From: Fidelibacterota bacterium
GTDB lineage: Bacteria > Pseudomonadota > Alphaproteobacteria > Rhodospirillales > Rhodospirillaceae
NCBI GenBank assembly: GCA_947472795.1
Contig: CANJBL010000013.1
Coordinates: 3,553-67,552 of the forward strand
DNA: 64,000 bases
Direction of reading: 5' to 3'
The translations under genes and the position numbers were made by a program. Shown here piece after piece: positions 21,397 through 49,218 of the stretch (within the stretch, counting starts at the first letter, position 1; every line of letters begins with the position of its first letter). The notes beneath the pieces were generated by a model, which worked only from the letters and a program-made list of their open reading frames with translations, made no database searches and was not told the DNA's origin.

Positions 21397-21726
21397 ATGA
21401 CGACTCCGGCTATTGACCAAATCAAGAAAGACCTGAGCGAGAACGACGTGGTGCTGTTCATGAAGGGCACTCCGGCGGCCCCCATGTGCGGCTTCTCGGC
21501 GGCGGTGGTACAGGTGCTGTCGCACATCGGCGTGAAGTTCAAAGGCGTGAATGTGCTGGCCGACAACGACGTGCGCCAGGGCATCAAGGACTTCTCCAAC
21601 TGGCCGACGATCCCCCAGCTGTATGTGAAGGGCGAATTCGTCGGCGGCTGCGACATCGTGCGCGAGATGGCCGAAGCCGGCGAGCTTCAGACGCTCATGA
21701 AGGAAAAGCAGGTCGCGACGGCGTAA
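21397..21726 (+). CDS. grxD: Grx4-family monothiol glutaredoxin
   Basis: VVLFMKGTPAAPMCGFS...WPTIPQLYVKGEFVGGCDI, with the CGFS active site. Confidence 0.95.
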   Translation: MTTPAIDQIKKDLSENDVVLFMKGTPAAPMCGFSAAVVQVLSHIGVKFKGVNVLADNDVRQGIKDFSNWPTIPQLYVKGEFVGGCDIVREMAEAGELQTLMKEKQVATA

Positions 21727-21752
21727 GCCTTAGAGACAAGCTCGATAAAACA

Positions 21753-21786
21753 AAACGGCGCTCATGAGAGAGCGCCGTTTTTTGTT
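21753..21786. terminator. bidirectional rho-independent terminator shared by grxD (+) and cassette 1 (-)
   Basis: aaacggcgctc-atgaga-gagcgccgttt, with T-runs on both strands. Confidence 0.85.
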
Positions 21787-21815
21787 TGTGGTCTTTGAGA
21801 CCCAAATCATTCTTC

Positions 21816-22757: not shown

Positions 22758-23365
22758 TTAGCACCGTTGTTTTTCGGCTTCCATAGCATCGGCGGCAAAT
22801 CGGAGTCCGCTCCACTGAGATCGATGTGCGGAGCATCATCGCCGTCTTCAATGTCGTCGATGTCAGCTTGGCATTCGTCTAGAAGCCAAATGCCTCGCTT
22901 TCTCTCAAAAACAAAGTCGCAATCAAAATAATCTTTTGCCCAAGCTTCTGCGACTTTCACGTTGCCCTTCTCAGGCGCCAACGAAAATACCGCCTCGATT
23001 GAGCCATCGTGTACGTAGGTATTTACCTGCACGATCTCCGCCGCCGTCACCAAGTCGTAGTATGAATGTCCGTTGAGCGGGCCAAAGAATATATCGACAG
23101 CTTCTTCATCCATCAGCCCATCAACACAATGGTCTGGATCCGTGGGAAGACATTTCGAACGTGGCGATATGGCGAGAGCGAGAGCTTTGTCTTTGGTCTC
23201 GATGGCCTTTAGGAAGCACCCGATCGCCCAACCGACCTGCGACGTGACCAAATTATTGGGCACATAGCCTGGACACGACGCAAGCGGCGTACCATCGAGA
23301 TCGTCTTTCGCATACGATACATTCGAACAGAAAAGTACCGCAATGATGAGGATGCAAAATTTCAT
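22754..23365 (-). CDS. secreted protein, candidate cognate immunity protein for the M23 toxin
   Basis: 203-aa ORF with signal peptide MKFCILIIAVLFCSNVSYA. Its ATG overlaps the toxin stop (ATGA at 23362-23365). Low GC. Confidence 0.65.
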   Translation of the reverse strand: MKFCILIIAVLFCSNVSYAKDDLDGTPLASCPGYVPNNLVTSQVGWAIGCFLKAIETKDKALALAISPRSKCLPTDPDHCVDGLMDEEAVDIFFGPLNGHSYYDLVTAAEIVQVNTYVHDGSIEAVFSLAPEKGNVKVAEAWAKDYFDCDFVFERKRGIWLLDECQADIDDIEDGDDAPHIDLSGADSDLPPMLWKPKNNGAK

Positions 23366-24267
23366 GGCCTTCCTAGCCAGCCGAGATCTTCAAATATAAG
23401 GTTGGGATCTTCAACGCGGCTACCGCGTGTTGCCGGCGCATCGGGCGTTCCCGGGCGATATGTAAAGTGAAGATGCGGGCCAGTCCCTTCACCCGAGCCG
23501 TTTGTGAATCCAATCTGGCTTCCAGCCGCGACATCCTGACCTACTTTCAGTCCACCGACCGCCCTAGTGTGGGCGTAGCCATACAGATTGCCAGACGCGT
23601 CTCTAATCGTAATGTAGTTGCCGCTTTTAGAATCTTTTCCAATCTCCACCACCTTACCACCAACAACGCTTCGAATGGGTTGATTGGGACGAGAACAAAG
23701 GTCCACGCCGTTGTGAGGAACCGGCCTATTTTCAGTACTGCCGAAATCGTCGCCGCCAATTATCGCACCATTTATCGTCGGATAAAACTTCGCCTGTGTG
23801 CGGCTTTTAGGCAATGGCTTACCTGTGACAGTAATCCCTTCTGTCGGTGGGCCATCAATGACAACGGGCGACCCGCCACCACCCCCAGTGTCCACCCGCC
23901 CTGCGCCGACCTCATCATAGCCGGGTGAGGAAAATGAGCCGGAGTCCACGTAGGGGGAACCAATGGTCGTAACGGATTCCCCGTTGTCGGTGAAACCGTC
24001 GTAAGAGCCCTCGAACTCCGGCAGTCCAGTGTTCGGGTTAATGCGGTTCTTGCGGCTGCCGATGCGCAAAGAGTCGAAAGGTATGTTGTTGGCTGCGGCG
24101 GCCTGGCGGAGAAGGGAAAGAAGTTCCGGGGTTTGCAGAAACTCTGGGAGGATGATCTCGCCGGGCGTCAGGTGCGCGAGATGGCCGAAGCCGGCGAGCT
24201 TCAGACGCTCATGAAGGAAAAGCAGGTCGCGACGGCGTAAAGCCCGAGACACCTTCGGATAAAACAA
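23362..24267 (-). CDS. M23 (LytM-type) peptidoglycan endopeptidase toxin whose N-terminal module is truncated and fused to antisense grxD sequence (orphan, possibly silent)
   Basis: The C-terminus has HNGVD (HxxxD) and GPHLHF (HxH), which are M23 zinc motifs. Residues 31-150 (AHLTPGEIILPEFLQTPELL...GGGGGSPVVIDGPPTEGITV) match the paralogs at 24968..25864 and 26662..27756. Residues 1-32 are read from the reverse strand of a duplicated grxD 3' fragment, and a terminator hairpin lies immediately upstream. Confidence 0.7.
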   Translation of the reverse strand: MFYPKVSRALRRRDLLFLHERLKLAGFGHLAHLTPGEIILPEFLQTPELLSLLRQAAAANNIPFDSLRIGSRKNRINPNTGLPEFEGSYDGFTDNGESVTTIGSPYVDSGSFSSPGYDEVGAGRVDTGGGGGSPVVIDGPPTEGITVTGKPLPKSRTQAKFYPTINGAIIGGDDFGSTENRPVPHNGVDLCSRPNQPIRSVVGGKVVEIGKDSKSGNYITIRDASGNLYGYAHTRAVGGLKVGQDVAAGSQIGFTNGSGEGTGPHLHFTYRPGTPDAPATRGSRVEDPNLIFEDLGWLGRP

Positions 24268-24299
24268 AACGGCGCTCCAAGAGAGCGCCGTTTTTATTT
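24172..24299 (+). repeat. duplicated copy of the grxD 3' end plus its terminator (direct repeat of 21658..21786)
   Basis: 69 nt (gtgcgcgagatggccgaagccggcgagcttcagacgctcatgaaggaaaagcaggtcgcgacggcgtaa) are identical to 21658-21726. A diverged ~20-nt spacer follows. The terminator hairpin aaaacggcgctc-caaga-gagcgccgttttt then follows. Confidence 0.95.
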
Positions 24300-24314
24300 G
24301 GCTTCGTACGCAGA

Positions 24315-24986: not shown

Positions 24987-25864
24987 ATGGGCAAACGGTT
25001 ATTAACTGTATCGATCGCGCCTCTGATTAGGTCCGTGTAGCCGCTATGATTATTATACATATTATTGGGGTCCTCCCCCAACTCTCTCATAAAATCATCT
25101 AGGTTGCTCTTGCCCTGTAAGCGGTTGAAAAATTGAGTACCTCTAAACGCGTCAATTGAAGCCTGATTCGTCGGATAGCTATAGGGCTTCTCATTCGCAT
25201 CACTCAGTCCAAATAAATTATTTTTCTTAGACTGACCCCAAGCGCTTTCATGAGCGGCGAGGCCAAGAATGAAATTTGGAGGTACCTTCATCTCATTTGC
25301 TAGCGCGGTGAGAGGACCAGTATATGACCTGAAGAACGCATTCACGTGTGGCGGATTTAAGCTTTTTGGGGTTACCGTAATCCCCTCTGTCGGCGGGCCA
25401 GGAACGACATATGGTTGCCCACCGCCGCCGCCCGTGTCCACTTGCCCGCCGCTGACCAAATCAAAGCCGGGTGAGGAAAATGAACCGGAGTCCACGTAGG
25501 GCGAACCAATGGTCGCAACGGATTCCCCGTTGTCGGTGAAACCGTCGTAAGAGCCCTCGAACTCCGGCAGTCCAGCGTTCGGGTTAATGCGGTTCTTGCG
25601 GCTGCCGATGCGCAAAGAGTCGAAAGGTATGTTGTTGGCCGCAGCTGCCTGGCGCAGAAGGGAGAGAAGTTCTGGGGTTTGCAGAAACTCCGGGAGGATG
25701 ATCTCGCCGGGCGTCAGATGCGCCATCTCGGTGTCGCCACCACGGCCCTGGGCAGCGAGGGCCTTGGCCTGACGGGCGCGTTCCTTCTGGCGCTTTTTCT
25801 CGAGGGCTACGGCCTGCTCGCGCGTCAACGCGCCGGGGCTGTTGTTGCGGAAGAGTTCGGTCAT
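24968..25864 (-). CDS. polymorphic toxin: conserved N-terminal module fused to a glucosaminidase/muramidase-like (FlgJ C-terminal type) peptidoglycan glycosidase domain
   Basis: 298 aa with an AAGGAG RBS. Residues 1-165 are shared with 26662..27756. The C-terminal ...ILGLAAHESAWGQSKKNNLFG... resembles the catalytic-Glu block of Glucosaminidase (PF01832) domains. No signal peptide. Confidence 0.8.
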   Translation of the reverse strand: MTELFRNNSPGALTREQAVALEKKRQKERARQAKALAAQGRGGDTEMAHLTPGEIILPEFLQTPELLSLLRQAAAANNIPFDSLRIGSRKNRINPNAGLPEFEGSYDGFTDNGESVATIGSPYVDSGSFSSPGFDLVSGGQVDTGGGGGQPYVVPGPPTEGITVTPKSLNPPHVNAFFRSYTGPLTALANEMKVPPNFILGLAAHESAWGQSKKNNLFGLSDANEKPYSYPTNQASIDAFRGTQFFNRLQGKSNLDDFMRELGEDPNNMYNNHSGYTDLIRGAIDTVNNRLPIWEQGH

Positions 25865-25960
25865 GGGAAGCGTGCTCCTTTTCTAAAAACAAAAGCAGCT
25901 TCCGTCATAGAATTATCGCGCCTCGCCGCCAATCCGTGCGGCCGCTGTTCCGCCCGCTTT
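25865..25960 (-). promoter_or_regulatory. conserved 5' leader/promoter block of the toxin genes, with a hairpin covering the Shine-Dalgarno
   Basis: About 95 nt nearly identical to 27757..27850. On the mRNA strand it reads GGAAGCUGCUUUU-GUUUUUAG-AAAAGGAGCACGCUUCC and ends 1 nt before the AUG (25866..25903). Confidence 0.55.
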
Positions 25961-25971
25961 TCAAGTTATCC

Positions 25972-26014
25972 AAAAACAAAACGGCGCTCTGTTGAGAGCC
26001 CCGTTCTTTGTTTC
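25972..26014. terminator. third, slightly degenerate copy of the AAAACAAAACGGCGCTC...CCGTT terminator; ends cassette 3
   Basis: caaaaacaaaacggcgctct-gttgag-agccccgttctttgttt has one stem mismatch and a U-run on the minus strand downstream of the stop at 26053. Confidence 0.7.
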
Positions 26015-26661: not shown

Positions 26662-27756
26662 TCACGGGTGCCAGTAGGGATCGACTTCGACATGGATATG
26701 GTCATCGTGGCCGCCCAACGGCGTAACTCCTGCAATGTTAGGATCATTGAAGAATATATTTCTTACTCCTCCCGTTGCGCGCAGAATATCAATCAGCGCT
26801 TGCGTTGCGTTTCGGTCATAGTTGGGGTCTTTCCATGTGGTGCCCGGGACTTGTTGACCGTCACTCCTGACCGGCCTGATGTCGATGCTCGTACCGTTCG
26901 CTTGATGGCCGGTATGACCGTACGGGGATCCGTCTTCTAAACTCATATTTCCCGCGCCGAATGGCTTTGCGCCCGTTGCACTCCATTGTTTACCCGCTTC
27001 ATTGATAAGATTGACTGCGGCCGGCACGCCATATTGAGCCTGTCTAGGTCCACCTCTACGGCCAGGGCCTGGTGTTCCGTAATTATAATATCCGCTAGCC
27101 GGCGTGCCCTGAGGCAGCTGCATGAAACCCGGAAGCGGCGTCGCTTTCACCGTAATCCCTTCTGTCGGTGGGCCATCGATGACAAGGGGCGGCCCACCAC
27201 CACCGCCGTTGTCAGCCTGTGGCGCGCCAATCAGATTAAAGCCGTTCCCAGAAAATGAGCCGCCGTTCTGGAAGGGCGAACCCGTTACCGTCACGCCGTC
27301 CATGCCCGCCCCGTTGCTGGCGAACGGTGGAGCAATGTTGAGTTGTCCAGGGTCCAGGAAGCTGCTGATATCCGGGAGATTACTGAGGCCCGGAAGGTCG
27401 TCGAACGTGGGGATGTAAAAAGACTCGCGATCGTAGTCGGTGTAGTAGTCGAACTCCGGCAGGCCTGTATTGGGGTTAATGCGGTTCTTGCGGCTGCCGA
27501 TGCGCAAAGAGTCGAAAGGTATGTTGTTGGCCGCGGCTGCCTGGTGCAGAAGGGAGAGAAGTTCCGGGGTTTGCAGAAACTCGGGGAGGATGATCTCGCC
27601 AGGCGTCAGGTGCGCGAGTTCAGTATCGCCGCCCCTGCCTTGAGCAGCGAGCGCCTTGGCTTGGCGGGCGCGCTCCTTCGCGCGTTTCTTCTCAAGCTCC
27701 ACGGCTTGCTCGCGCGTCAGGGCACCGGGGCTGTTGTTGCGGAAGAGTTCGGTCAT
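26662..27756 (-). CDS. polymorphic toxin: conserved N-terminal module fused to a LAS-superfamily (MepA/peptidase M74- or M15-like) murein endopeptidase domain
   Basis: 364 aa. Residues 1-102 are ~95% identical to 24968..25864. It carries the same GGGGGPPLVIDGPPTEGITV junction. The C-terminal HTGHQANGTSIDI (HxxxxxxD) and GGHDDHIHVEV (HxH) match LAS zinc-peptidase motifs as in MepA. Confidence 0.8.
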   Translation of the reverse strand: MTELFRNNSPGALTREQAVELEKKRAKERARQAKALAAQGRGGDTELAHLTPGEIILPEFLQTPELLSLLHQAAAANNIPFDSLRIGSRKNRINPNTGLPEFDYYTDYDRESFYIPTFDDLPGLSNLPDISSFLDPGQLNIAPPFASNGAGMDGVTVTGSPFQNGGSFSGNGFNLIGAPQADNGGGGGPPLVIDGPPTEGITVKATPLPGFMQLPQGTPASGYYNYGTPGPGRRGGPRQAQYGVPAAVNLINEAGKQWSATGAKPFGAGNMSLEDGSPYGHTGHQANGTSIDIRPVRSDGQQVPGTTWKDPNYDRNATQALIDILRATGGVRNIFFNDPNIAGVTPLGGHDDHIHVEVDPYWHP

Positions 27757-27850
27757 GGGAAGCGTGCTCCTTTTCTAAAAACAAAAGCAGCTTCCGTCAT
27801 AGAATTATCGCGCCCTGCCGCCAATCCGTGCGGCCGCTGTTCCTCCCGCT
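27757..27850 (-). promoter_or_regulatory. conserved toxin 5' leader/promoter block (copy 2)
   Basis: Near-identical to 25865..25960, including the SD-covering hairpin (27758..27795). Homology ends at about 27850. Confidence 0.55.
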
Positions 27851-27920
27851 ATGCCCGAAGAGCACAGGGTTTAGTCTTGGGACGCACAGGTGCATCACGC
27901 ACTCGTCGCGTTTCTTGGCT

Positions 27921-28016: not shown

Positions 28017-28631
28017 TTAGCGCGAGTAGAATTCGATGACGAGGTTCGGTTCCATCTGGACGGGGTACGGCACGTCCTTCAGGCCGGGCACGCGCTTCAG
28101 AGCGCCGGCGAACTTGGAGTGATCGACGTCGATGTAATCGGGCACATCGCGCTCGGCGGATTCAGAAGCTTCCTTCAGGGTGGCGAGGTCCTTGGACTTG
28201 CGGCGCACTTCCAGGGCATCGCCCACCTTGACCATGTAGGACGGGATGGTGACGCGCTTGCCGTTGACGCTGACGTGGCCGTGGCTGACGAACTGGCGCG
28301 CGGCGAACACGGTCGGCACGAACTTCATGCGATAGACGATGGCGTCCAGACGGCTTTCGAGAATGCCGATGAGGTTTTCGCCGCTGTCGCCCTTGCGGCG
28401 CATGGCTTCGGCGTAATACTTGCGGAACTGACGCTCGGAGATGTTGCCGTAGTAGCCCTTCAACTTCTGCTTGGCCATGAGCTGCACGCCGTAATCGGAC
28501 GGCTTCTTGCGCTTCTGACCGTGCTGGCCGGGACCGTATTCACGCTTGTTGATCGGGCTTTTGGCGCGGCCCCAAAGGTTGACGTTGAGGCGGCGGTCGA
28601 TCTTGTACTTTGACTCAGTACGCTTGGTCAT
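28017..28631 (-). CDS. rpsD: 30S ribosomal protein S4
   Basis: [39 protein letters not shown]...; 204 aa. Confidence 0.97.
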
Positions 28632-42429: not shown

Positions 42430-43818
42430 TCACGACTCTGATTTCTTATTGATGCTTTGGGATTTCGCCGCTTTCTTCATCTCGCGGTATTTGGCGGCAA
42501 AGCCTTCGCGGGTTTCCTGCCGCGAGGAATTCAGCGCGAGGCCATCCTTGGGCACATCTTTCCTCACGACGGCACCGGCCCCGGTCATGCCGCCCTCGCC
42601 CACTTTCACGGGCGCGACAAGCACCGTGTTGGAGCCGATAGAGGCGCCAGCGCCGATCTGGGTGCGCGACTTGTTGAAGCCGTCATAGTTGGCGGTAATG
42701 GTGCCTGCGCCGACGTTGGCTTTGGCGCCGACATCGGCATCGCCCACGTAGGAGAGATGGTTCACCTTCGCGCCCTCGTCCAGGTGTGCGTTCTTAATCT
42801 CGACGAAATTGCCGACGTGCGCATCCTTGCCGATGGAGGCGCCAGGGCGCAGCCGCGAATAAGGACCGACGATGGCACCTGTCGAGAGATGGGCCCCTTC
42901 AAAGTGACAGAAGCCCTTAATGACGACGCCGTCCTCGACAGTTACACCTGGACCGAAGTGCACGAAGGGGCCGATCTCCACATCCTTGCCGATCTTGGTG
43001 TCGGCAGAGAAATAGACCGTGTCAGGCGCCGTTAGCGTAGCGCCGTTCTCCATGGCGCGCAGGCGCCGCGCGCGTTGGAAGATGGCTTCAGCTTCCGCCA
43101 GTTCGACGCGGCTGTTGATGCCGAGCATCTCGTCCTCGGGGCCTTCGACCACGGCACACGCCAAGCTCTTGGAACGCGCGAGGCCGACGACGTCCGTGAG
43201 ATAGTACTCGCCCTTGGCATTGTTGGGTTTCACACCAGCCAGCAGATCCCACAACACGTTGGCATCAGCGAGCATGATGCCCGAGTTGCAGAGCCCAACC
43301 TTCAATTCTTCCGGCTTTGCGTCTTTGGCTTCGACGATGCGCTCAAGACCGCTATCGCTGGTGATGAGGCGGCCATAGGCGCCAGGATCCTTCGGCCGGA
43401 AGCCGAGCACGACGATGGAAGGCTTCTGTTCTGCAGTGCGCGCCGCGCGCATGTGTTGAATGGTCTCGGCAGCGACGAAAGGCGTGTCGCCGTAGACGAT
43501 GAGCACGTCGCCCTTGAAGCCGGCCAGCGCGTCTTTGGCTTGCAGCACGGCGTGACCGGTGCCGAGCCTGTCCTTCTGCCGCACGGTCTGGTGCGGCGAC
43601 ACAGCTTTGGCGACGCCGTCCATATCGGGCCCGATGACCGCAACCACGGGAGAAATCTTCTCCTCCATGAGCGTCGCGAGCACATGCTGGACCATGGGCC
43701 GCCCGCCAATGGCGTGCATGACTTTGGGCAGGATGGAGCGCATGCGGGTGCCCATGCCGGCGGCCAGAATAACGGCAGCCGTGGCGATTGCGGGAGACGG
43801 GGAGCCGGGGGGCGTCAT
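42430..43818 (-). CDS. glmU: bifunctional UDP-N-acetylglucosamine pyrophosphorylase / glucosamine-1-phosphate N-acetyltransferase
   Basis: AVILAAGMGTRM... plus C-terminal left-handed beta-helix hexapeptide repeats. The ATG at 43818 is chosen; the track ORF (to 44001) is an upstream extension. Confidence 0.93.
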   Translation of the reverse strand: MTPPGSPSPAIATAAVILAAGMGTRMRSILPKVMHAIGGRPMVQHVLATLMEEKISPVVAVIGPDMDGVAKAVSPHQTVRQKDRLGTGHAVLQAKDALAGFKGDVLIVYGDTPFVAAETIQHMRAARTAEQKPSIVVLGFRPKDPGAYGRLITSDSGLERIVEAKDAKPEELKVGLCNSGIMLADANVLWDLLAGVKPNNAKGEYYLTDVVGLARSKSLACAVVEGPEDEMLGINSRVELAEAEAIFQRARRLRAMENGATLTAPDTVYFSADTKIGKDVEIGPFVHFGPGVTVEDGVVIKGFCHFEGAHLSTGAIVGPYSRLRPGASIGKDAHVGNFVEIKNAHLDEGAKVNHLSYVGDADVGAKANVGAGTITANYDGFNKSRTQIGAGASIGSNTVLVAPVKVGEGGMTGAGAVVRKDVPKDGLALNSSRQETREGFAAKYREMKKAAKSQSINKKSES

Positions 43819-44185
43819 GGGCTGCGGAATTTCGGGTTTGGGCTGGGGGCAGAGTGGATGGGTGGAAGGTCGGCTTTGATTATTATAGCTTTTTTCACGG
43901 TAGCACGAAGATGGCATGCCCCTATGGCGGGAGTAAGGCCGGTGCCACAGCCACGGTGTGAGAAAAGCGTACCGAAACGTGTGAAGCCTGCATCGCAGCA
44001 AAACGCCGGGAGCGGGAAAAGTTCCCCAAAAACCAGCAAAATGCGGGGGATAAGCCGGAGGATATCGTGGAAAAACCGCCCCGGCGGGGCATGCATAAAA
44101 AAATCCCCCGAAAACCCCGCCAAAACGCTCCTTGGACCGTTAACAACGGGAATCGGGTGCGATAGGTGCCGGCCTCTGCCTATGG

Positions 44186-44214
44186 TTGACAGGCCAAGGG
44201 TCGGACTTTAAGAA
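44186..44214 (+). promoter_or_regulatory. candidate sigma-70 promoter for tRNA-Val
   Basis: TTGACA-17 nt-TAAGAA, about 47 nt upstream of the tRNA 5' end. Pattern only. Confidence 0.35.
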
Positions 44215-44261
44215 CCGGGCTCTCTTTTTGGGACCTTCAAAGCCTTTTGGCCGGACCCGAA

Positions 44262-44336
44262 CGGGCGGTTAGCTCAGCGGTAGAGCACACGCTTCACACG
44301 CGTGGGGTCGCAGGTTCAATCCCTGCACCGCCCACC
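44262..44336 (+). tRNA. tRNA-Val (anticodon CAC)
   Basis: Manual cloverleaf. Acceptor GGGCGGT/ACCGCCC; D arm GCTC-AGCGGTA-GAGC; anticodon arm CACGC-TTCACAC-GCGTG; T arm GCAGG-TTCAATC-CCTGC. CCA is encoded. Confidence 0.9.
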
Positions 44337-44543
44337 ATTTCCGTCACAGTCTCAAGAGTCGCGAAATCCGCGGCCCTTAGCGTTTTGAGCCGTGAACCGG
44401 GGGACCGCTTCGGAGCGCCGAAACCAGTTCAAGAGGGTGCGGGTTACTTGCGGGTTACGGAGCCCTTCGAATTCGATAGCACTTGAAGTGCAAAACGTAG
44501 CGCAAAGGCTACGCTAGCGCCGCATCCATCATGGTCGTGGCGC

Positions 44544-44828
44544 TCATAGCGGCGCTCCACGGCGAGTGCGCTCGATAATTTCTTGTATTTCGCTTAGCTT
44601 CACCAAACGGCGAGAGTTGAAGAACGTGTAACTTGGCACCGAGCCATTTCGCACCGCTCGAGCAAGTTTCCATGTTTTGATATTGAGAATGCGCGCCGCT
44701 TCTTTGACGACAAACAATTGCTCAGCCAGCTGCGACCGATTCGTCGCGACACCTTCACGGGGCTCTATTCGATCACTGTTCATATGCACCTCCTGCAATT
44801 CAGGAGGCGTACACTCACCGTGTTGCAC
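44544..44828 (-). CDS. excisionase/AlpA-type helix-turn-helix DNA-binding protein
   Basis: LFVVKEAARILNIKTWKLARAVRNGSVPSYTFFNSRRLVKLSEIQEII is typical of HTH_17/Xis-family proteins. It is AT-richer than the flanks and lies next to a tRNA gene. The start may be an internal ATG (44783). Confidence 0.65.
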   Translation of the reverse strand: MQHGECTPPELQEVHMNSDRIEPREGVATNRSQLAEQLFVVKEAARILNIKTWKLARAVRNGSVPSYTFFNSRRLVKLSEIQEIIERTRRGAPL

Positions 44829-44862
44829 TTTGTAGGAACATATTTGCCAGAATTTTGTCCGA

Positions 44863-45516
44863 CTATCGGGCTAGATTCTTTTTCACAATACCGAGCGCTG
44901 CCATGCTACGCAGAGTTTGCGTCATATTCTTCCTAAAAGCGCGCCCCTCGGGCAATTCATTCTCATAAGAGCGAGCCACCAAAATCTGATCTTTCGAGTA
45001 GTTAAATTTTCGGCGCAGTCGGCGAACTTTATGATCTTGCTCGCTCGAATTTAGATTTTGGTAGTCAGGCAATTTCTTTTGCAGAATTGCTCGACATATT
45101 TCGCTTAACGAACGCTTCTTTCGGCCGGCGGTAAAAAAGTCCAGGTAATATTCGTCACCGATTAAGCTAAGAATTTCTTCGTCGCCATCGAGCAATTTTG
45201 GTCCACGGCGCGCAGAAAGCCCCAAGAGAGCTCGCATCGCACTGTCGATACGTTCGTCTTTTGTTGTGCTGCCATTTTTGACGGGATGCCTATTGATGAC
45301 TGCGCGGACTATAAACCGCAACGCCGCCTTTTGGCCAAAGACGGACTTGATGATCATTTGAACTTTCTTTTCGGCAAGTGTTCCATCCTCACCGACCCAC
45401 ACAACATCATCTGGCCCTATTCCTTCCAATCCATGGCCGGCTTGCTGCTTCATAAATTCTGGCGGCTCGGTCAATTTCGACCTCTTTTGGTAGCGACGAA
45501 TTTTCTTCACCTCCAA
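44863..45516 (-). CDS. hypothetical protein (islet gene)
   Basis: 217-aa ORF, low GC, Lys/Arg-rich. No family recognised. Confidence 0.6.
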   Translation of the reverse strand: MEVKKIRRYQKRSKLTEPPEFMKQQAGHGLEGIGPDDVVWVGEDGTLAEKKVQMIIKSVFGQKAALRFIVRAVINRHPVKNGSTTKDERIDSAMRALLGLSARRGPKLLDGDEEILSLIGDEYYLDFFTAGRKKRSLSEICRAILQKKLPDYQNLNSSEQDHKVRRLRRKFNYSKDQILVARSYENELPEGRAFRKNMTQTLRSMAALGIVKKNLAR

Positions 45517-45635
45517 CCTCCCTACTTCTTGTTGACCAAGCGCCGATTCCTGCGTCGCCCCTTAGCCTCTTACGACCCCGACGACCGTAATAGAGCTCAA
45601 TAGACCTCAACGGGTTTCGATTTTTTCTTTATCCT

Positions 45636-46625
45636 TTGTCTATCCGACCGCAGAAGAAAAGCCGCCTGAAGCGCGAGGATCGCTTCTGCAACGTATGCTC
45701 AACGCCGCCATTGGCCCGGCCTGAGCTTTTAGGTGTCACGGTGCTTTTTTCGTCAAAACTTAAACGTGCCGTTGCTTCGCTCCGCATTAACGTCGCTGCA
45801 CGCGTGGAAGGCATTCAGGCAGGCGTTCCAACATTTTTCGACAATTTTATTCTGAAACTCACTGCCAATCTACTCGCCCGTGAAGAGATTCATGATTGGA
45901 ACCTCGCTCACAAGACACAGCCGGGCAGCGAACGCCACGCACTACAAATGGATCTGCAATTCGTCGACATTTACCTGAAAAGCCACGATGAGGGACGGTT
46001 TGTAAAATACGCTGCACGCCGCGCTCTGGACCGAGCGCGCAATGGCATTGTCAGCGACATTGCTGAACTTGATCTCGTGATGAGCCAGGGTACGGACACA
46101 TGTTTGAATTGGAAGAGTGATCCACTCTTCAAGACCGTTTACGATTTCACCCTCTATCCAATGATGCTGTGGGAAATCAGGCCCGCAGCAATCATTGAAA
46201 TAGGCTCGGGTCTTGGCACGAGTGCGATTTGGCTGGCCGATATGCTCGGCGTCCTGAAGATCGAGGCGACGATCTATTCCGTGGACATCACCCCTTTGCA
46301 GAAAACCTATCCTGGCGTTCGCTTTAGCGCCGGCGATTGCCGCCATCCGGAAACGCTGATCGGCGTCGAGGCGTTGAAGGCCATGCCCCATCCACTTCTT
46401 GTCATCGAAGACGCGCACGTCAACGTGCTGGGTGTGCTTACGTATCTACATCCACACATGCGCTCCGGCGACTACCTCATTGTCGAGGATAGTCAACCCA
46501 AGCAAGAAACGCTCGACGGCTTTATGAGCAAATATGGGGCATCTTATCGCGTCGATGCACGTTATACGGACTTCTTCGGCCGCAACGCCACCTGCGCCGC
46601 GAATTCTATTTTCAAACGGGTTTAA
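45636..46625 (+). CDS. CmcI-family (cephalosporin hydroxylase-like) methyltransferase
   Basis: ...YPMMLWEIRPAAIIEIGSGLGTSAIWLA...LLVIEDAHVN...GDYLIVEDS matches the CmcI (PF04989) pattern. The true start may be downstream, for example ATG 45948. Confidence 0.6.
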   Translation: MSIRPQKKSRLKREDRFCNVCSTPPLARPELLGVTVLFSSKLKRAVASLRINVAARVEGIQAGVPTFFDNFILKLTANLLAREEIHDWNLAHKTQPGSERHALQMDLQFVDIYLKSHDEGRFVKYAARRALDRARNGIVSDIAELDLVMSQGTDTCLNWKSDPLFKTVYDFTLYPMMLWEIRPAAIIEIGSGLGTSAIWLADMLGVLKIEATIYSVDITPLQKTYPGVRFSAGDCRHPETLIGVEALKAMPHPLLVIEDAHVNVLGVLTYLHPHMRSGDYLIVEDSQPKQETLDGFMSKYGASYRVDARYTDFFGRNATCAANSIFKRV

Positions 46626-46664
46626 CAAGCGCGGCGAAAAGCGCTGGCATTCTCGGGAGAAGGT

Positions 46665-46741
46665 TGGTGGGCCCGGCAGGACTTGAACCTGCAACCAGGC
46701 CGTTATGAGCGGTCGGCTCTAACCAATTGAGCTACAGGCCC
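46665..46741 (-). tRNA. tRNA with CAT anticodon (elongator Met, or Ile2 after lysidine modification)
   Basis: The reverse complement is GGGCCTG-TA-GCTC-AATTGGTTA-GAGC-C-GACCG-CTCATAA-CGGCC-TGGTT-GCAGG-TTCAAGT-CCTGC-CGGGCCC-A-CCA. The variable and T arms resemble ileX-type tRNAs, but this cannot be decided by eye. Confidence 0.85.

Positions 46742-46815: not shown

Positions 46816-49218
<2,403 letters not shown>

Follow-up and report, generated by a model that had tools for sequence, protein, structure and literature searches.

A module shared by polymorphic toxins and podovirus ejection proteins suggests toxin delivery by phage-like particles

How do wall-degrading toxins reach the periplasm of another cell when the N-terminal region that they share carries no signal peptide? 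The question is raised by a low-GC island of ~6 kb located between grxD and rpsD in the window, a stretch of 64,000 nucleotides from contig CANJBL010000013.1 (assembly GCA_947472795.1) that was analysed as a whole. The island occupies 21.8-27.8 kb of the window and has a G+C content of ~52-55%, against ~60%. Its minus strand encodes three toxin open reading frames (ORFs), toxin 3 (T3), toxin 2 (T2) and toxin 1 (T1), with at least one ORF for a signal-peptide protein after each (Table 1). Sequence-profile comparison shows that the core of the shared N-terminal module has homologs at the N-terminus of certain podovirus proteins, namely those whose genes fill the first ejection-protein slot in P22-like and SU10-like genomes; this homology suggests that the toxins are delivered by phage-like particles. 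An earlier reading of the same DNA (the original prediction) had listed a phage-like particle, bacteriocin-type uptake, type I secretion and other routes; the phage-particle route is favoured among these because of the phage homology and the ejection-slot positions described below.

The N-terminal module and its phage relatives

Positions 25370-25864 encode residues 1-165 of the T2 ORF. The module covers the first ~105 amino acids (aa). It starts with a brief leader (M..LFRNxSPGALT), continues with a basic helix and finishes with a core of ~65 aa that opens with GRGGDTxxAHxTPGE and, after about 51 aa, closes with NPxTGxPEF. T2 and T3 are ~93% identical over residues 1-105. The module DNA is about 88-100% identical among the toxin copies of the window, so the similarity of the three proteins reflects paralogy rather than chance. 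The claim that all three proteins carry the module applies to T2 and T3, which possess the whole ~105 aa, and not to T1, where homology runs only from L-A-H-LTPGE. The module had also been described as unplaced and devoid of a signal peptide, and both descriptions hold: residues 1-165 have no match in Pfam, PHROGs or NCBIfam scans, and a PDB sequence-profile search with the module returned nothing at E<=10. The proposed basic coiled segment appears in the AlphaFold2 (AF2) model of T2 as a helix at residues 15-38 with a predicted local distance difference test score (pLDDT) of about 90. It is followed by a small alpha/beta element (54-102), disorder from 103 to 171 that includes the junction, and a helical hydrolase C-domain.

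A scan of IMG/VR recovered 184 module relatives on viral contigs, and hhalign comparison of the bacterial module with the phage-context module gave a probability of 99.9% (E 1.3e-35 over 75 columns). Together with the ejection-protein positions of these genes, this bears out the tentative suggestion in the original prediction that strings of the type GDT..AH..P.E...NP.TGLPEF occur in phage virion proteins. The viral proteins are ~210-760 aa long as full ORFs and carry the module at the N-terminus, followed by basic and Gly-rich hydrophobic segments; they end either in a phrog_598 'DNA ejection' region or in a motif, GPGTGTSDDIPAMLSDGEFV, that is common to tape-measure proteins. The gene order of viral locus L050 is TerL, portal, scaffold, major capsid protein (MCP), Ad3 (gp4), Hc3 (gp10), a 145-aa gene, the module gene, a 370-aa gene and a 701-aa gene. 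This agrees with the P22 order 4-10-26-14-7-20-16 and places the module gene in the gp7 slot; the phrog_598 match of L050, like that of L094, is confined to the C-terminal part of the protein. Of 79 viral loci, 51 encode a nozzle-like tail protein, weakly similar to gp17 (the nozzle of SU10), whose gene lies on the module gene's strand and ends 0.3-1.7 kb upstream of it. The ejection proteins gp20-24 of SU10 come after the nozzle gp17 and the needle gp18, and gp20 is an ejection protein with a transglycosylase domain (PMC9509320).

A short form of the module, GRGQDTMLAHITPQEARVLQMMGGMGTVNPATGLREY, occupies the same slot in phage DSL-LC04, where a 760-aa 'tape measure' lies upstream of a 'DNA transfer protein', and in gp46 of Methylophilales phage Venkman. 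When the window module was searched by tblastn in 50,697 cultured phages and 72,556 plasmids, no real match appeared; DSL-LC04, Venkman and two spring phages come up only with a consensus or short-form query. The PHROGs scan returned no phrog_598 match for the window proteins. Their gene position points to the phage module proteins as putative virion-borne ejection proteins that would be released upon infection.

A C-terminal motif, GPGTGTSD(D/S)IPAMLSDGEFV(M/F)TAKAV, is common to module-bearing phage proteins, a pelagiphage protein and many annotated tape-measure proteins. The motif protein of L126 is gp72 of Pelagibacter phage HTVC115P, encoded between portal and capsid. Proteins with this motif exit the virion through the tail, or are predicted to do so.

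The toxin/immunity family and cassette exchange

A phmmer search of the module against 1.84e9 representatives (cut-off E<=1e-3) gave 865 cluster representatives with the conserved core at residues ~28-105, and a word-indexed search gave 36 relatives, all from metagenomes or metagenome-assembled genomes (MAGs). One further candidate, P0039 (2266 aa, 26 'stretches'), is repetitive and lysine-rich and was dropped as a compositional false positive. Conservation is centred on ...LA(A/L)QGRGGDTE(I/V)AH(V/L)TPGE(I/V)V(L/I)P..LQTPE...VG...N(S/R)INPxTGxPEF. Two subfamilies were distinguished: the A-type, which includes the window, has the leader M..LFRNxSPGALTxEQA and the basic helix, and the B-type has an N-terminal extension of 85-100 aa in place of the leader. 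Three homologs (P0049, P0061 and P0064) contain two tandem A-type leaders (..LFRNxSPGALTxEQA..) ahead of the core, and the leader therefore behaves as a separate duplicable unit. Within GTDB genomes, the module is nearly confined to Rhodospirillaceae-like MAGs from freshwater, which often have three to five loci each. Several records titled 'Candidatus Marinimicrobia bacterium' (L010, L011, L013, L014, L019, L026, L031 and others) carry module toxins as in the Rhodospirillaceae MAGs beside an alphaproteobacterial-type grx-BolA-purL-purQ-purS synteny; their organism label is probably wrong.

Behind the common N-terminal region, the C-domains are unrelated, both in the window alignment and in Pfam scans of 39 + 137 homologs. 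T2 matches Glucosaminidase (PF01832, E 3.8e-8), T1 matches Peptidase_M23 (PF01551, E 6.6e-20), and T3 has weak matches to Peptidase_M74 (E 6e-4) and to an NCBIfam murein endopeptidase, in line with the complete divergence that had been reported after the junction motif. Cargo domains recognised by Pfam among 137 representatives are Phage_lysozyme (7), Hydrolase_2 (6), M23 (5), Glucosaminidase (4), M15_4/VanY (3), M74 (3) and phospholipase A2 (PLA2; 2), along with 3D/DPBB, DUF6973 and Ntox44. Almost all of these are wall or lipid hydrolases that act in the periplasm, which fits release in that compartment; no nuclease, deaminase or NADase family was recognised in the listed cargo of the 137 representatives. 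Candidate immunity genes adjoin the toxin genes and co-vary with the toxin domain on both N-module subfamilies. The T2 domain and its immunity candidate (I2) recur jointly in L035 on a B-type N-terminus, and the T1 domain and its candidate (I1a) recur jointly in L016. Orphan cassettes truncated at the 5' end are represented by T1 and by two copies in L036. By this organization of its sequence, the grxD-rpsD island is a polymorphic toxin/immunity locus, and the two extra signal-peptide ORFs beyond the three cognate candidates are likely orphan immunity genes. The homolog of the 138-aa extra ORF is located at 11588-11812 of L011, downstream of a module-toxin locus in another MAG.

The linker between module and toxin domain is disordered and Gly/Ser-rich and closes in PYxxxGPPTEGITV, or PY.Y.GP..E[EG]I.V in extended form. 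The three positions that the original prediction gave for this junction are exact, and its quoted 22-aa strings begin one codon further upstream. The strict pattern is present in 21 of 156 homologs (~13%), against 0.4 expected in shuffles, and the motif occurs in A-type and B-type subfamilies, with a variant, RDPRMEEIVV, in a prophage lysozyme toxin. Most homologs diverge directly after ...NPxTGxPEF. Judging from these alignments, the junction is genuinely conserved and serves as a swap point of second rank; the main family boundary lies directly after PEF. Its proposed role as the conserved swap point is thus retained in part: toxins are exchanged there and it is conserved at the DNA level in the window, but it is found in only a minority of homologs and ranks behind PEF. 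Both the module core and the junction are nucleotide-conserved in the window and so offer anchors for recombination. The linker of T3 holds an additional degenerate junction copy, GAGMDGVTVTGSPF, which suggests a short repeated unit.

A recombination scar beside T1 records how such cassettes are gained. A perfect 69-nt duplication (24172-24240) repeats the grxD 3' end at 21658-21726, and the listed T1 ORF (23362-24267, 301 aa) begins inside it, such that its first ~30 codons are the antisense of the duplicated sequence. The joint between T1 and the grxD copy lies in a 9-nt microhomology, GTGCGCGAG, which corresponds to 'VRE' in grxD and to the antisense of the 'LAH' codons. Copies of a terminator at 21747-21787, 24260-24300 and 25973-26013 provide one terminator per toxin/immunity block, the third after the T3 immunity gene. 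Because spacer and hairpin loop differ between the two grxD-tail copies, the T2-I2 block was probably imported together with a grxD tail from a relative in which it lay beside grxD. This import probably involved one homologous and one microhomology-mediated crossover and displaced T1. This hotspot is reused: in a related genome, the grxD/BolA/purL site is taken by a different module toxin. The repeats show that cassettes are acquired by recombination anchored on module DNA, with the junction and the downstream terminator as secondary anchors, and that a displaced older cassette becomes a 5'-truncated orphan, here T1. The window thus keeps a clean scar of both processes, the gain of a cassette and the formation of an orphan.

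A promoter-like element, CTTGAC-N-TTCAAAAATCTAT, lies ahead of A-type toxins in eight loci, several of which are the same locus in different assemblies or samples. Written as CTTGAC-N3-A-N3-TYCAAAAWTCTAT, it is situated 60-100 nt upstream of the A-type toxin genes and hints at a common regulator. The element is not recognisable in the window, where T2 and T3 share an upstream block of ~95 nt instead. A search for co-regulated genes with this motif gave 46 metagenome matches, which were rejected as chance because their contigs range from 26 to 55% G+C and no module toxin follows any of them.

Table 1. Features of the grxD-rpsD island (window coordinates) and motif sites at other loci (coordinates of the respective locus)
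Feature	Coordinates (strand)	Remarks
grxD, left flank of island	21397-21726 (+)
Native grxD 3' end and bidirectional terminator	21658-21787 (+)	Left island boundary; template copied in the scar
Extra signal-peptide ORF, 138 aa	21816-22232 (-)	Candidate orphan immunity gene; 62%-identical homolog downstream of L011 toxin locus
Extra signal-peptide ORF, 171 aa	22242-22757 (-)	Candidate orphan immunity gene; no family match
Immunity candidate of T1 (I1a), 203 aa	22754-23365 (-)	Signal peptide; homolog adjoins homologous M23 toxin in L016
T1, 5'-truncated orphan	23362-24180 (-)	Module from LAHLTPGE on, linker, junction at 23824-23886 (GGGGGSPVVIDGPPTEGITVT, translation), M23 peptidase
Recombination scar	24172-24300 (+)	Perfect 69-nt grxD 3'-end copy, diverged spacer, terminator copy (24260-24300)
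Immunity candidate of T2 (I2), 223 aa	24315-24986 (-)	Signal peptide; 43%-identical homolog after homologous toxin domain in L035
T2, 298 aa	24968-25864 (-)	Full N-module, linker, glucosaminidase (FlgJ-type muramidase) domain
Linker and junction of T2, aa 106-165	25370-25549 (-)	Junction at 25370-25432, GGGGGQPYVVPGPPTEGITVT (translation)
N-module of T2, aa 1-105	25550-25864 (-)	Core of the finding
T2 upstream region	25865-25959 (-), approximate	Common to T3; DNA alignment
Terminator-like hairpin	25973-26013 (.)	Third copy of the AAAACGGCGCTC...GAGCGCCGTTTT element; 85% identity within repeat family
Immunity candidate of T3, 188 aa	26053-26619 (-)	N-terminal signal peptide; no Pfam or NCBIfam match
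T3, 364 aa	26662-27756 (-)	Full N-module, long Gly/Ser-rich linker, LAS/M74-like murein endopeptidase domain
Junction motif of T3	27145-27207 (-)	GGGGGPPLVIDGPPTEGITVK; translation of coordinates
N-module of T3, aa 1-105	27442-27756 (-)	Leader M..LFRNxSPGALT, basic helix, core GRGGDTELAHLTPGE...NPNTGLPEF
T3 upstream region, ~95 nt	27757-27851 (-), approximate	Near-identical in T2; putative promoter/5' untranslated region, AAGGAG ribosome-binding site; DNA alignment
rpsD, right flank of island	28017-28631 (-)
GPGTGTSD motif sites	L074 9992-11295; L057 2293-4148; L103 9836-11904; L126 6293-7300; L127 8536-10815
Promoter-like element sites	L003 639-664; L010 611-636; L015 242-267; L017 3018-3043; L018 2911-2936; L031 9838-9863

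Elsewhere in the window, a second low-GC islet (~50%, 44000-46700) lies between glmU (42430-44001, -) and rpoD (46816-49218, -). It contains two ORFs of unassigned function, at 44863-45516 (-) and 45636-46625 (+), and has no match to phage structural probes.

Genomic setting and route of delivery

Some module toxins lie within prophages. SU10-like prophages of Rhodospirillaceae with SU10_portal, SU10_MCP and SU10_adaptor were identified on the viral contig 3300012921_000043 (L047/L048) and at the MAG loci L036, L032 and L027; within the structural cluster or at its end, three to four module-toxin and immunity pairs are encoded, with four module copies in L036. The L047/L048 cluster starts with SU10_portal, a 334-aa protein that would be a scaffold by position, SU10_MCP and a B-type module protein accompanied by a Sel1-repeat gene in convergent orientation. 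It continues with SU10_adaptor, fibres, the nozzle-like protein, another module protein (paired with a signal-peptide gene) and the lysis cassette, and ends with a third module protein, which has a Phage_lysozyme domain, and its signal-peptide gene. Viral locus L052 likewise has module proteins among its SU10-like genes. As these loci have module proteins among SU10-like genes, module toxins share a location with late head and tail genes in at least some cases. Two ORFs of L047 (11660-12529 and 12465-12953) that appear Fic-like and Dps-like by eye are located between a toxin/immunity pair and the lysis cassette and may be accessory 'moron' genes.

Only housekeeping genes surround the stand-alone loci, which are the island of the window and ~20 others of A- and B-type, and no recurrent secretion or phage family emerged when Pfam scans were pooled over the flanks of 18 of them. 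Many toxin copies are decayed, among them one at L037 (6966-7871), where a decayed toxin and its immunity gene adjoin a lone pair of small and large terminase genes with no portal. Leader-only or frameshifted remnants are found at fixed chromosomal sites in several samples (L131 10001-10219, L132 and L133, between tyrS and yhdP).

The homology, the gene positions and the cargo together incline us to the reading that a podovirus-type particle ejects the toxins into the target periplasm. Each functional toxin, T2 and T3, consists of the N-module, a disordered Gly/Ser-rich linker and a swappable peptidoglycan hydrolase, and would be neutralised in the producer by the periplasmic immunity protein encoded just downstream. 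The module would be the part that brings the protein into the phage head, through the tail channel, or both. A resident podovirus-type prophage, or a domesticated form derived from one, would supply the particles; these would take up the toxins and eject them into a target cell's periplasm, where the hydrolases would cut the wall of cells lacking the matching immunity protein. A broader and more tentative proposal is that the products of scattered chromosomal cargo genes would, by means of their ejection-protein N-domain, ride in the heads of a resident podovirus or a domesticated podovirus-like particle that serves as a protein-injecting weapon, an ejectosome-based effector route independent of secretion systems.

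Several observations weigh against particle delivery. The main weakness is that no carrier particle has been tied to the window's genome or to the A-type loci in searches that did not extend to whole genomes. Structural probes detected no phage-like genes across the 64-kb window, and at the ~20 stand-alone loci no phage structural or secretion genes lie within 10 kb, L037 excepted. The sole locus found in a complete chromosome (L038 in OZ257255.1) is also placed among housekeeping genes. The model phages lack the module, which is absent from P22 gp7 and SU10 gp19 when these are read directly. A search of IMG/VR with the A-type leader (LFRNxSPGALT) found no relatives, such that the subfamily of the window was never seen on a viral contig; the same search of the protein database returned only 11 short remnants. 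Structural evidence is similarly thin: the AF2 model of the module alone is of low confidence (pLDDT 66), and Foldseek of this model against BFVD and PDB gave nothing below E 0.7. A few cargo domains (Ntox44, DUF6973) have no assigned target, and packaging and ejection of module proteins are steps that we infer.

Four other explanations were weighed, and all are less well supported than particle delivery. The proteins could be ejection-type virion hydrolases that aid phage DNA entry, with 'immunity' acting as superinfection exclusion against related phages and the chromosomal copies being remnants of decayed prophages. This would account for module genes in ejection slots and inside prophage structural clusters, for the many decayed or leader-only copies and for the decayed copy beside a lone terminase in L037, and wall-degrading ejection proteins such as the SU10 gp20 transglycosylase do exist. 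It is nevertheless judged unlikely. In a single compact island, the window has two intact cassettes that share an upstream region, along with an orphan and five signal-peptide ORFs, and no further phage relic; intact loci occur several times per genome in housekeeping contexts; the cargo includes phospholipase A2 and Ntox44; and cassette swapping with orphan formation is typical of toxin/immunity systems. As it also requires delivery by a particle, this explanation differs from the preferred one in purpose and not in mechanism. Small hydrolase or lipase effectors that act in the periplasm, have periplasmic immunity proteins and are encoded far from the apparatus are classical for type VI secretion systems (T6SS). 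The toxins could therefore be cargo of a distant contact-dependent system, either a T6SS or a Xanthomonas-type type IV secretion system, with the module as an adaptor- or spike-binding domain that shares ancestry with phage injection proteins. The small size, periplasmic action, immunity candidates and scattered loci of the toxins agree with this, and the absence of any apparatus beside the loci calls for a distant machine of some kind. We regard it as quite improbable, given that no Hcp, VgrG, PAAR, DUF4123, DUF1795, MIX, FIX or Rhs was found in the toxins or their +-10 kb flanks, that the relatives in phages belong to the internal proteins of podoviruses, which are non-contractile, and not to tail-spike or tube proteins, and that toxin copies lie inside capsid gene clusters.

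The two remaining explanations rest on readings of the core motif that the original prediction had raised as alternatives. In one, the toxins are soluble bacteriocins of the colicin M/pesticin type, released by lysis, in which the module serves as the receptor-binding or translocation domain and DTExAH as a TonB-box-like strand. Periplasmic targets, periplasmic immunity candidates and the absence of linked export genes are compatible with a bacteriocin, as is the N-terminal position of the motif, which resembles that of TonB boxes; the likeness of DTExAH to one is only loose. The proposed TonB box DTEMA, however, contains an acidic residue, belongs to a domain conserved in phage internal proteins and has no TonB-related genes within 10 kb of the loci examined. 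The island also lacks a lysis or release gene, the 105-aa module is small compared with known translocation-plus-receptor-binding regions, and copies are embedded in phage head gene clusters; the chance of a bacteriocin is accordingly rated as slim. Type I export, with GRGG|D read as a double-glycine leader for cleavage by a C39-peptidase ABC transporter, has in its favour only a Gly-Gly about 42 residues from the N-terminus and is considered very improbable. The sequence ahead of it (...LAAQGRGG) has non-hydrophobic residues at -4 and -7 (G, A), and GRGGDT..AH is an internal conserved part of the domain common to phage internal proteins, in which GRGGDT is found ~10-20 residues from the start or well inside. 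No C39, ABC or HlyD genes are present near any locus examined.

If particle delivery holds, wall- and membrane-degrading enzymes would be ejected into non-immune neighbours from an effector/immunity repertoire organised as in T6SS, by a route that targets the periplasm and is for the most part independent of the prophage genome. The homology also offers an initial lead on the function of an N-terminal motif that is widespread but unannotated in podovirus ejection proteins (865 cluster representatives, 184 IMG/VR loci). Should the module prove to be a portable head-packing and ejection signal, phage particles could usefully be loaded with proteins by its means.

Comparison with known systems

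No description of the module was found in the literature searched, of which coverage was incomplete. The closest parallel in design is the MuF toxins of temperate phages, which combine a conserved phage head-associated N-domain with variable C-terminal toxins and adjacent immunity genes; these genes lie in the morphogenesis module of prophages, and capsid packaging followed by injection with the DNA is their predicted route (Zhang et al. 2012, PMC3482391; Jamet et al. 2017, PMC5576092). The systems differ in several respects. No MuF/SPP1 gp7 domain was found by Pfam in the window proteins or in 176 homologs, and the module described here derives from podovirus ejection proteins rather than from the portal-associated SPP1 gp7/MuF protein. 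The hosts are Alphaproteobacteria (Rhodospirillaceae MAGs) instead of Firmicutes, and the cargo is composed almost wholly of periplasm-acting wall and lipid hydrolases, whereas MuF cargo consists of cytoplasmic nucleases or (p)ppApp synthetases. MuF toxins are reported exclusively in phages and prophages, while most loci of this family, the window's and ~20 further ones among them, lie outside prophages; placement in a packaging or head module was seen only at L027, L032, L036, L047/48 and L052, in SU10-like clusters. The idea of polymorphic toxins delivered by phage capsids has so far rested on the MuF toxins and is largely untested, and the module would, if the reading is true, be a second and unrelated trafficking domain for it.

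The podovirus ejection proteins (P22 gp7/gp20/gp16, SU10 gp20-24 and T7 gp14-16) are similar in that phage relatives of the module occupy the same slots, some of them with a phrog_598 C-terminal part, and in that wall-degrading members exist (SU10 gp20). Unlike them, the window proteins have neither an ejectosome-forming Gly-rich or transmembrane region nor phrog_598, and they are accompanied by candidate immunity genes. A working model for stand-alone cargo genes that use a particle is provided by the internal proteins of T4 (IPI-III, Alt), which have no sequence relationship to the module. Here, a short N-terminal capsid targeting sequence of about 10 aa loads unrelated proteins into the prohead, is cut off by the prohead protease, and the proteins are injected with the DNA to act in the cytoplasm. 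CdiA (VENN) and Rhs (PxxxxDPxGL) toxins share with the island a demarcation motif ahead of the variable toxin, truncated orphans downstream and recombination on the conserved region. The toxins described here differ from both in being only 220-370 aa long, in lacking FHA and Rhs repeats as well as VENN and DPxGL motifs, and in possessing two alternative boundaries, one after PEF and one after PYxxxGPxxE[EG]IxV.

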